Below are positions 31,648-33,327 of a stretch of DNA of 64,000 nucleotides, in pieces. Both the position numbers and the translations under genes were made by a program. The notes beneath the pieces were generated by a model. It was not told the DNA's origin. It ran no database searches and saw nothing but the letters and a program-made list of their open reading frames with translations. Source of the stretch: Escherichia phage Pinarejo; the sequence record PP925831.1; one strand, 5' to 3'. Within the stretch, counting starts at the first letter, position 1; every line of letters starts with the position of its first letter.

Positions 31648-32103
31648 TTAAAAGAGGCTGTTCATTATTCGGTAAAGTGAAGGACCCATCACATATTGCC
31701 ACTGAGTACGAGGAATAAGAGCAAAAGCATCCATCTCTGGAATCATAACGCCATCTTTATTTTCAAAATAAGACTCGCAATGGCAATTTCTAAACATCTC
31801 ATGCTCTACTGGAATCGTATAATAAAATAACTGTAAGTCTTTATTACTAGAATATTTAAATACACCTAGGTCTTCTAGAAGGTCTGGATTATAATTGCTA
31901 AAACCGGTCTCTTCTAAGCATTCTCTTTTTGCAGCTTCCAGTGCATTCAAATCAGAACTTTCTACGCGGCCCTTTGGAATATCCCAGCGATGTGCCATCA
32001 TTCCAGGCTTACGAGAACCAGTAACCCGACCCATAAATAAATCTTTATCTTCTGTCATAAAGATAATACCAGCTGATAGTGTTTTCATTTTAATTTCCTG
32101 CAT
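31648..32103 (-). CDS. nudE: Nudix hydrolase NudE
   Basis: Nudix box GRVESSDLNALEAAKRECLEETGF; 151 aa. Confidence 0.85.
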   Translation of the reverse strand: MQEIKMKTLSAGIIFMTEDKDLFMGRVTGSRKPGMMAHRWDIPKGRVESSDLNALEAAKRECLEETGFSNYNPDLLEDLGVFKYSSNKDLQLFYYTIPVEHEMFRNCHCESYFENKDGVMIPEMDAFALIPRTQWQYVMGPSLYRIMNSLF

Positions 32104-32573
32104 TCAGTGATAAAGTTATTTAAATTTTGAGTATATTTCTTTTCATCAAAAATCTTTTGCTGCCTACGTAACCGCCATGGCATTTCAATGAACACGCGCC
32201 ATATTCCTGATAGTATTGCTGCTGTAAAAATATTAACAAGTATGGTTAAAAGAGCCCAATCTCCTATTCTATCCATTGGATTTTTTATAAAAAAGTAAAA
32301 CACAAACGATGATATAGGAAGACTAATGATATACCACAGAATAACCTTCTTATCTGTGAACCATTCAGCATTCGTTAACTTAGCACGACCATTATGAATA
32401 CACACGAATTTATCATCTGTTACAGTAGATGGCTTAACTGCTTGATATCCCATTCTAAACTCCCTAATTAATCGTTTCTTTGTATCTTCAGAACAGCCGC
32501 TCCAGTCAACTCTATCAACTGAAATGCCATCATCCCCATCATCTAAATCATACCAGCGAGTTTTTAAAATCAT
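32085..32573 (-). CDS. Small membrane protein, 162 aa (paralog family, C-terminal TECRKLK)
   Basis: Two hydrophobic segments; C-terminal ...FITECRKLK. Confidence 0.5.
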   Translation of the reverse strand: MILKTRWYDLDDGDDGISVDRVDWSGCSEDTKKRLIREFRMGYQAVKPSTVTDDKFVCIHNGRAKLTNAEWFTDKKVILWYIISLPISSFVFYFFIKNPMDRIGDWALLTILVNIFTAAILSGIWRVFIEMPWRLRRQQKIFDEKKYTQNLNNFITECRKLK

Positions 32574-32932
32574 TTAATTTTCCTACAATCACTCACAAAC
32601 TCTTTCATTGACTCATTTTCAATATAAGACATGTAGCTATTATATTCTTTTAATTGTATTTTGTAATCTTTTTTTCTTTGCCAATTTATTTTAAAATTAT
32701 CATAATGAAAATATAAAATGATACCAAAGAATGAAAACAATGAAATAATTTTAGTATAACAAAGCTCACTCCAAACTTCTGTTATATTTACTGTGCCGTC
32801 GATGTTTAAAATAAGACAGTCAATTAACAATCCAAAAAGACTACCTGCAAGAGCTGCAGCCAACGCCACAGCAAAAATTAAAAATGACTCAGAAAACGAA
32901 TATTTGACTTTATTTAGTTTTGGCTTTTGCAT
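32570..32932 (-). CDS. Small membrane protein, 120 aa (paralog family, C-terminal SDCRKIK)
   Basis: Two hydrophobic segments; C-terminal ...FVSDCRKIK. Confidence 0.5.
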   Translation of the reverse strand: MQKPKLNKVKYSFSESFLIFAVALAAALAGSLFGLLIDCLILNIDGTVNITEVWSELCYTKIISLFSFFGIILYFHYDNFKINWQRKKDYKIQLKEYNSYMSYIENESMKEFVSDCRKIK

Positions 32933-33327
32933 CGTGATTCCTTAACAAATTTCATAATTTCATCAAATTCATACGCAGCAAGTTTAAGCTGATGTTCCTT
33001 TTTAATCTTTTTACACTGTGCTTTCCAATCACGTACGCGTTTACGATAATGCCTTCCTTGATACCAGTATCCTACCCAATTTACGGGTACTAATAAAAGT
33101 GGAACTATTAATGGAAGAATTAGCATTAACACAAGTATTTCGCCAGAATCAATATCAGTCATAACATCTAAAACACCTCCAATAATCAATAGAATTACAA
33201 ATGATATGAGTATAACAGGACCTATTAACACATCAGTAGAAATTATCTGACGCTTTGGTTCATACTTCACAGGTTTACTTGGAAGATATAGTGATGGTTT
33301 TGACATATTCTCTACATTCCTTAACAA
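32914..33327 (-). CDS. Small membrane protein, 137 aa (paralog family, C-terminal ESRCK)
   Basis: Two hydrophobic segments; C-terminal ...FVKESRCKSQN. Confidence 0.5.
   Translation of the reverse strand: MLRNVENMSKPSLYLPSKPVKYEPKRQIISTDVLIGPVILISFVILLIIGGVLDVMTDIDSGEILVLMLILPLIVPLLLVPVNWVGYWYQGRHYRKRVRDWKAQCKKIKKEHQLKLAAYEFDEIMKFVKESRCKSQN

Follow-up and report, generated by a model that had tools for sequence, protein, structure and literature searches.

The T4-type genes e.2, e.3 and e.4 share a short C-terminal motif with other genes downstream of a PspA homologue

In the ESCRT-III system, C-terminal helix motifs on the ESCRT-III subunits bind the MIT domain of Vps4 (MIM-MIT). PspC is reported to have its N- and C-termini in the cytoplasm and to bind PspA through the C-terminal cytoplasmic domain (PMC5596341). 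LiaH is brought to the membrane by LiaI (PMC7619361), and the LiaI-LiaF-TM domain is a region of four transmembrane (TM) helices (PMC11237479). Here we analyse three consecutive small genes in a 64 kb stretch of Escherichia phage Pinarejo (PP925831.1), referred to below as the window, whose positions serve as coordinates. In the T4 reference annotation, these genes are named e.2, e.3 and e.4. We found that the conserved functional element of their products is a short amphipathic helix at the C-terminus and not the membrane part, and that the three proteins are members of a modular family restricted to T4-type phages. The same tail is carried by the product of the neighbouring gene e.5, and the whole series follows e.6, which is a divergent homologue of the PspA/IM30/Vipp1 proteins in the ESCRT-III superfamily.

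The genes e.2-e.4 are already known from T4. The genes e.2-e.6 are still listed with unknown function in functional-genomics tables of 2025 (PMC11879866 supplement), and we found no functional study of e.2, e.3 or e.4 in the literature. Searches of Pfam, NCBIfam, PADLOC and the PDB sequences with e.2-e.5 gave nothing significant. Homology searches with e.2, e.3 and e.4 retrieved relatives almost only at the Tequatrovirus and Mosigvirus level, with 51 homologues for e.2 (precomputed Pfam family PF26896) and 98 for e.4 (PF26873). The window itself belongs to Tequatrovirus: the 3 kb around the locus match 512 phage records at 90-99% identity, and in 497 of these at least 80% of the 3 kb is covered.

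The shared C-terminal tail

On the minus strand, e.2 (32085..32573, 162 amino acids (aa)), e.3 (32570..32932, 120 aa) and e.4 (32914..33306, 130 aa) end in FITECRKLK, FVSDCRKIK and FVKESRCK, as a preliminary description of the window had correctly quoted. The core motifs are F-I-T-E-C-R (32097..32114), F-V-S-D-C-R (32582..32599) and F-V-K-E-S-R (32932..32949), all on the same strand, the last one being a variant with its Cys displaced by two residues (S-R-C). The same description had spoken of a triplet of motif genes. The motif is real and far beyond chance, but the series has four members, including the non-membrane protein e.5: this soluble protein (33275..33889, minus strand, 204 aa) ends in ...EKFVKECREYVKTITISSK and has F-V-K-E-C-R at 33311..33328 (minus strand). 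The tail is the only part that e.5 shares with e.2-e.4.

A six-frame translation of the window contains the pattern F[VIL]x[DE][CS]R at five places, four of them being the C-termini of the consecutive genes e.5, e.4, e.3 and e.2. We also scanned the 628 open reading frames (ORFs) of a T4-type whole genome composed of T4 1-50 kb, the window and T4 99-169 kb. The only ORFs with the strict form [FWY][IVL]xxC[RK] among their last 25 residues were e.5, e.3, e.2 and thymidine kinase (Tk), with e.4 having a variant, and the strict form occurs just six times in total in the 75,457 residues of this genome. The Tk match is an unrelated YVSLCRKHW segment, which recurs in the Tk of three other T4-type phages.

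The same arrangement was observed in many other phages. We took the nudE or e.6 neighbourhoods from Dhaka-, Gapriver-, Mosig-, Kanagawa-, Jiaoda-, Karam-, Muldoon-, Biquarta-, Braga- and Pseudotevenvirus, plus 37 IMG/VR loci anchored on e.6, 34 of them full-length. Across more than 45 loci and more than 10 genera, one to five motif genes lie just downstream of e.6 and almost none upstream, and tail-bearing genes come directly after e.6 in every genus having e.6. Among the 34 full-length IMG/VR loci, a strict-motif ORF ends no more than 1.1 kb after e.6 in 33; the 6 kb downstream of e.6 hold 1-5 strict-motif ORFs per locus (mode 3-4), while the 6 kb upstream hold none in 33 of the 34. Copy number in related phages, which the preliminary description had singled out, does vary, as the number of tail genes per locus differs between genera. 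The pair of e.6 and an e.5-like gene is retained amid differing neighbours (nrdD/nrdG region, RB43-type and Aeromonas phages), and in the RB43-type and Aeromonas phages the pair is not beside nudE and e.

We defined the tail-motif family as proteins encoded downstream of e.6 and ending in hydrophobic-[EN]-x-[FWY]-[IVL]-x-x-C-[RK]. In e.2, e.3 and e.5 the motif falls among the last 25 residues, as does the variant FVKESR-C in e.4, and all four genes are in a co-directional cluster immediately downstream of e.6. The overall consensus is hydrophobic-[E/N]-x-F-[I/V]-x-x-C-[R/K], with a few residues after it, most of them basic. We collected 160 distinct tails using a relaxed pattern, probably with a few chance matches from outside the cluster. 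Position -3 is L (56), I (21), F (19) or V (13) in these tails, and position -2 is E or N. The aromatic position is F in 135, W in 13 and Y in 12, and is followed by I (113), V (35) or L (12). The Cys is present in 114 tails (else I, V, M or S), followed by R (134) or K (26) and then by 0-15 more residues. About half of the tail carriers are hairpin membrane proteins, which form 42 subfamilies at 55% identity, and the rest are soluble; other genera have the same tail on further small soluble and membrane proteins. In the alignment of the e.5-position family from 11 genera, at 13-17% identity except for Mosigvirus (46%), only M1 and the motif Cys are invariant and the F is nearly so. A superfamily profile built on the three sequences gives distant members just 16-24 bits locally.

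Such a tail could be a generic element without a dedicated partner, e.g. an amphipathic helix for the membrane surface (targeting of the MinD type) or a signal for stability or degradation, on carriers that are otherwise unrelated. The tail is amphipathic, with the hydrophobic positions -3, 0, +1 and +4 on one helix face and a hydrophobic moment of 0.38-0.52, and its basic residues come after the helix; a targeting helix would also bring the soluble e.5 to the membrane of the hairpin proteins. However, generic helices and degrons tolerate many sequences, whereas here F, I/V, C and R are individually conserved among proteins at 13-17% identity, and the 628-ORF scan found the motif in no other phage protein, the unrelated Tk match apart. 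We consider this explanation quite unlikely.

The shared ending might also be a feature of the nucleic acid, such as a signal for translation initiation or coupling of the next gene, or a recombination joint. From e.5 to nudE the genes overlap by 32, 19, 4 and 4 nucleotides (nt), each motif region contains the Shine-Dalgarno sequence of the gene that follows (AAGGAA in K-E codons, AGGAAA in R-K codons), and a natural e.4::e.2 recombinant exists. In e.2, the R-K codons after the motif (AGGAAA) provide the second ATG of nudE with its Shine-Dalgarno sequence. Against this, synonymous sites vary freely across genera (TTT/TTC for F, TGT/TGC for C), and the Arg is encoded by AGA, AGG, CGT, CGA and CGC. 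Since both the AGR and CGN codon families are used, what is conserved is neither a DNA nor an RNA element. The Shine-Dalgarno sequences also occupy differing motif positions, the distance from the motif to the next ATG ranges over 17-26 nt in the window, e.5-type proteins have the motif up to 15-29 residues before the stop codon, and the junction of the e.4::e.2 chimera is in TM1 and not in the tail. The codon evidence indicates that selection acts on the peptide, and we regard a signal or joint at the nucleic-acid level as essentially excluded.

We also considered a site of the gp21 prohead protease or the capsid-targeting sequence of internal proteins. The capsid-targeting sequence of T4 internal proteins resembles F-I-x-E. 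We rejected this candidate on the e.5 family, where the E is not conserved while the F and C are.

Between the e.3-like and e.2-like genes, Dhaka-, Gapriver-, Mosig-, Kanagawa- and Karamvirus have another tandem array, encoding 2-6 small soluble proteins of 65-105 aa, which is absent from the window (L002 918-2160; L003 1938-3204; L004 1858-2652; L005 1158-2762; L009 4134-4660). Its proteins end in W-[VIL]-S-S-S-x-x-C or W-Y-x-S-S-C right at the stop codon, and form another family that is defined by its C-terminus.

e.6 as a PspA/IM30/Vipp1 homologue

The gene e.6 (33931..34524, minus strand) encodes 197 aa and is named 'hypothetical' or 'host specificity protein' in public records. The window e.6 alone has no direct Pfam match. 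A HMMER scan of 1.84 billion representative proteins found 36 relatives only, almost all of ~200 aa. With a profile of 28 members, the top eight PDB sequences are Vipp1 or PspA (E 8e-5 to 2e-3), and the alignment is collinear from residue 1 to ~140. The Pfam family PF04012 (PspA_IM30) is matched by five of the 28 members, two of which are above the gathering cut-off (33.9 bits), i.e. P0225 with 39.0 bits and P0219 with 35.1 bits. These two are full-length homologues of the window e.6 (phmmer E 1.6e-7 and 6.8e-10, respectively), and through them the e.6 family has a sequence match to PF04012.

We predicted the structure of e.6 by AlphaFold2 (AF2) from the single sequence. The model has helices at residues 2-80 and 86-145, giving a long helical hairpin after an N-terminal helix, and its predicted local distance difference test score (pLDDT) is above 90 over residues 31-130. 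When the model was searched against the PDB with Foldseek, the best 14 matches were all Vipp1, PspA or CHMP1B, bearing in mind that this is a single-sequence model and that helical hairpins match many folds. The predicted fold has the N-terminal amphipathic helix and the long helical hairpin of the PspA/IM30/Vipp1 (ESCRT-III) fold. We assign e.6 to the PspA/IM30/Vipp1 proteins because the profile search, the Pfam matches of family members and the fold search all lead there. We found no paper linking PspA with T4-type phages, and a systematic survey of Psp proteins does not mention phages.

Hairpin architecture, paralogy and the gene chain

Hydropathy confirmed two hydrophobic segments in each of e.2, e.3 and e.4, followed by a tail that is predicted to be cytoplasmic. 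In e.2, an N-terminal soluble domain of ~75 aa precedes TM helices at residues 77-97 and 106-128 and a basic tail of 34 aa. The helices of e.3 lie at about residues 16-41 and 58-76 with a basic tail of 44 aa, and those of e.4 at about 25-47 and 57-78 with a basic tail of 52 aa. Each loop between the helices has 2-3 acidic residues and at most one K/R, compared with 4-15 K/R in the N-termini and in the long C-terminal tails. As the loops are acidic and both termini basic, the positive-inside rule predicts that the three proteins are inner-membrane two-helix hairpins with both ends in the cytoplasm (N-in/C-in). All three have, in this order, a basic N-terminus, TM1, an acidic loop, TM2, a Trp followed by a basic stretch, a helix and the motif. 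The AF2 model of e.4, built on a three-family alignment with a modest pLDDT of 66.5, predicts helices at 24-49 and 54-108, so that the TM2 helix runs on into the cytoplasm, and a separate tail helix at 111-128 containing the motif.

The cytoplasmic N-terminus of e.4 (MSKPSLYLPSKP..., 33262-33306, minus strand) is nearly invariant within Tequatrovirus, and its L-Y-L-P-S-x-P motif recurs in the e.4-like protein of Jiaodavirus (L006 6808 onward); it is a further conserved element on the cytoplasmic side, confined to the e.4 lineage. Elsewhere in the window a 153-aa two-TM protein (21768-22229, minus strand), with the tail ...IIVEFLKARKAKVCPVIEYKAE, is the only control ORF weakly matched by the e.3/e.4 hidden Markov model (E 0.0018 in a database of ~220 sequences). 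This match may reflect either a distant relationship or chance.

The preliminary description had regarded the three genes as tandem paralogues, and the data divide this claim. Direct BLASTP comparisons among the window proteins are marginal and limited to the tail (E 0.009, 0.074 and 0.15), and significance was reached only with the family profiles. e.3 and e.4 join one BLASTP cluster via other genera (e.g. E 5e-4 over 84 aa within phage VR20), and e.3 also matches PHROG 2604, the e.4 family, with E 1e-3. Using hhalign, the full e.3 and e.4 profiles score 90.7% over 57 columns; 58% (E 1e-4) is left after removal of the tail, covering TM2 and the juxtamembrane region, compared with 1.1% for the reversed control. 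The similarity of this pair extends beyond the tail and is above the composition controls, indicating that e.3 and e.4 are true paralogues. The comparison of e.2 with e.3/e.4 gives 90% (E 1.7e-6) in full, 0.6% without the tail and 4-6% reversed, i.e. we found no similarity beyond the tail. Hence the paralogy stands for e.3 and e.4 and fails for e.2, which shares the tail module and the overall architecture with the other two but has no demonstrable full-length ancestry with them.

A natural chimera of 106 aa was found in phage vB_EcoM-UFV05 (P0143), in which residues 1-31 of e.4 are fused within TM1 to the remainder of e.2. e.3 and the N-terminal domain of e.2 are deleted, and the protein carries both PF26873 and PF26896. 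This chimera shows that the hairpins are interchangeable modules.

Compared with T4, the ratio of nonsynonymous to synonymous substitution rates (dN/dS) is 0.21 for e.3 and 0.32 for e.4, versus 0.05 for e.6, 0.08 for e, 0.12 for nudE and 0.15 for e.5. e.3 and e.4 are constrained genes, yet faster-evolving than their neighbours. Within Tequatrovirus the variable positions are in TM1, the periplasmic loop and TM2, and hardly any change is seen in the N-terminus, the basic juxtamembrane stretch or the tail. Thus the rapid evolution that had been proposed for these genes holds relative to the neighbours but not for the tail. e.2, e.3 and e.4 are real proteins expressed early in infection by T4: early RNA was reported for all of e.2-e.6 and all five proteins were detected (PMC9697503 supplement).

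These data could be read as the mark of a conflict at the cell envelope, in which e.2-e.4 would be independent, fast-evolving envelope proteins for superinfection exclusion, immunity or counter-defence against membrane-acting host systems, with a tail that binds a host factor or serves another common purpose and with the proximity of e.6 being incidental. The early expression and the dispensability of the genes in the laboratory fit this explanation, and so do a dN/dS above that of the neighbours, the concentration of variability in the hairpin and the periplasmic loop as for an arms-race surface, the variation by genus in copy number and in content of the 42 subfamilies, the natural truncations and the e.4::e.2 chimera. 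But we found no similarity to Imm, Sp or the defence and anti-defence families in Pfam, NCBIfam, PADLOC and PHROGs: PADLOC gave no matches, and Pfam SieB matched one of 41 members at E 0.07, which is not significant. Moreover, an envelope conflict leaves unexplained why the soluble e.5 and other small soluble proteins have the same invariant tail, and why, in more than 10 genera, every tail gene closely follows a PspA homologue. We consider this explanation less likely than the module proposed below, though viable.

The three minus-strand ORFs are located as first described, with one exception. The 137 aa first given for e.4 belong to an ORF starting at a TTG (32914-33327), and the 130-aa form from the ATG at 33306 is more likely, because the T4 annotation and the 98 homologues agree on it. 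The gene order in the window is e.6, a hairpin, e.5, e.4, e.3, e.2 and nudE, all co-directional on the minus strand, so that e.5 and e.6 form the upstream flank and e.5 is the first motif gene after e.6. Downstream lie nudE and then the endolysin gene e, confirming what had been reported for this flank. nudE (e.1; 31648..32103, minus strand) encodes a Nudix hydrolase without the motif and is the last gene of the overlapping chain. Its members are translationally coupled: e.5 overlaps e.4 by 32 nt, e.4 overlaps e.3 by 19 nt, e.3 overlaps e.2 by 4 nt (ATGA), and e.2 overlaps nudE by 4 nt. Between e.6 and e.5 there is a G+C-rich hairpin with a UUCG loop (33907..33928, minus strand). A promoter scan found sites no more frequently than in shuffled sequence.

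The location near e raises the question whether e.2-e.4 are similar to holins or antiholins and tune the timing of lysis. Class II holins are small, cross the membrane twice with N-in/C-in topology and have a charged C-terminus. e.2-e.4 are predicted to look the same, and they lie two genes upstream of e. On the other hand, e.2-e.4 do not have the late expression in a lysis cassette that marks class II holins, along with a lethal lesion of the membrane through which endolysin is released, as their RNA is early and the e.4 and e.5 proteins are early (T4, PMC9697503 supplement). The T4 holin is t, encoded elsewhere in the genome; soluble members of the family exist; and in other genera ~10 unrelated genes separate the e.3-like genes from the e.2-like genes and e. 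The early expression and the known holin t make a holin-type role very improbable.

As for annotation, e.2 matches PHROG 2203 ('membrane protein', E 6e-77) and e.3 matches PHROG 2330. The public names of e.2-e.6 are 'hypothetical', 'host specificity protein' and 'sulfurtransferase'. Homologues of e.3 and e.4 are named 'sulfurtransferase' or 'DNA primase' (P0010, P0013, P0020, P0053, P0065, P0084 and others), with no support from domain searches. They appear to be annotation errors that have spread between records, and the rhodanese-like C-R-K string may have been the cause. We examined the rhodanese-like 'C-R-K-G' behind the NCBI 'sulfurtransferase' label and found neither a rhodanese fold nor a Pfam match, so we treat this label as an error of annotation.

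The window also has two nearly identical G+C-rich terminator-like hairpins (35278-35301 and 35835-35858, minus strand), each with the sequence AGCCCCGACC-[GA]AAA-GGTTGGGGCT followed by TTTTGG. They flank a 157-aa ORF (35309-35782, minus strand) beginning with MKSYTQFLNE, which resembles the capsid-targeting sequence of T4 internal proteins. This ORF may be a mobile internal-protein cassette.

A possible Psp-like membrane module

Our analysis suggests, with a probability of roughly 0.4, that e.2-e.4 serve as anchors or adaptors at the membrane and use their shared tail to dock one partner, e.6 being the most likely one, and that the set makes up a Psp-like membrane module. The tail would be a docking peptide for this one partner. 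e.2, e.3 and e.4 would then serve as membrane anchors, adaptors or sensors for e.6, as PspC or LiaI do for bacterial PspA proteins, with e.5 as the universal soluble partner, and the variable hairpins and loops would provide differing membrane or periplasmic specificities. The whole set may work as a phage-encoded Psp-like module that preserves the integrity of the inner membrane or the proton-motive force in the infected cell, a role that we extrapolate from the biology of PspA and Vipp1. The preliminary description had suggested superinfection exclusion, lysis timing or immunity; we draw the proposal elsewhere because the soluble e.5 shares the motif and the set is tied to e.6.

Several observations weigh against such a module. 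The link between the tail and e.6 is based on conserved gene neighbourhood, and T4-type genomes are generally syntenic. The UUCG hairpin sets e.6 apart from the coupled chain of e.5-e.4-e.3-e.2-nudE. The Pfam families of PspC (PF04024) and PspB gave no match at E<=1 among 41 diverse tail-bearing membrane proteins, nor did that of LiaI give one, and the window proteins did not match PspC or PspB either. In the e.4 lineage the motif Cys is replaced by S, V or I, which shows that not every member needs it. The T4 proteins fall into different temporal classes, with e.4 and e.5 early, e.2 and e.6 middle and e.3 late (PMC9697503 supplement), and CRISPR interference knock-down of each of e.2-e.6 caused no fitness defect in the laboratory (PMC11879866 supplement). 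Finally, e.2 is truncated in T4 and other isolates (102 aa, 122 aa; P0192, P0187). The T4 gene is annotated as a 102-aa ORF (L001 2992-3461, versus 32085-32573 in the window); compared with the window, one nucleotide is missing at nt 288, within an A-run, and one is added at nt 365, and the part read out of frame holds a stop codon. The two frameshifts compensate each other, and the motif-coding 3' part is still in frame.

A broader proposal, which we put forward tentatively as possible though doubtful, is that T4-type phages encode their own system of the ESCRT-III superfamily for membrane maintenance or remodelling. Here e.6 would be recruited or regulated by e.5, e.4, e.3 and e.2 via the shared C-terminal peptide hydrophobic-E-x-F-I-x-x-C-R, and the hairpins would sense or protect different membrane sites, possibly in connection with the envelope damage caused by the phage itself, lysis inhibition or membrane-depolarising host defences. 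If the proposed module is real, five conserved early genes of T4, the best-studied virulent phage, would gain a testable function, the PspA/Vipp1/ESCRT-III superfamily would gain a virus-encoded branch, and work on the membrane recruitment of PspA-type proteins would have a compact peptide motif at its disposal. Irrespective of any link to e.6, the motif unifies more than 40 subfamilies of orphan phage proteins and marks the part to mutate first.

Among the known systems, T4 Imm and Sp are also small, early and non-essential envelope proteins of the same phage, but they have no sequence relationship to e.2-e.4, are encoded by single genes elsewhere in the genome, and have neither the shared tail nor a PspA-like link. 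The MIM-MIT system resembles the phage set in that a short C-terminal amphipathic helix common to divergent proteins is used for docking in an ESCRT-III-type system, the docking being proposed for the phage. It differs in that the phage motif is on the neighbouring proteins and not on e.6 itself, and no ATPase is evident at the phage locus. In the LiaI-LiaH system of Bacillus subtilis a small membrane protein recruits a PspA homologue, which is what we propose on the phage side. Different from the four TM helices of LiaI-LiaF-TM, e.2-e.4 have two, and they show no sequence similarity to this domain.

The gene arrangement is also like that of PspA with PspB and PspC, where a gene of the PspA/IM30 family, here e.6, is beside the genes of small inner-membrane proteins. 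e.2-e.4 differ from PspB and PspC in having no sequence similarity to them, and the phage module has no PspF-type regulator. The phage also has several diversified anchors together with soluble proteins and one very short shared C-terminal motif, in contrast to the Psp system, and its module is found in a virulent phage and expressed early in infection. Since e.2-e.4 are not members of the PspB, PspC or LiaI families, our claim is that they may work like these proteins and not that they are such proteins. The likeness to PspC lies in the architecture and in the proposed role, the predicted topology and tail helix being consistent with the proposed binding of e.6.

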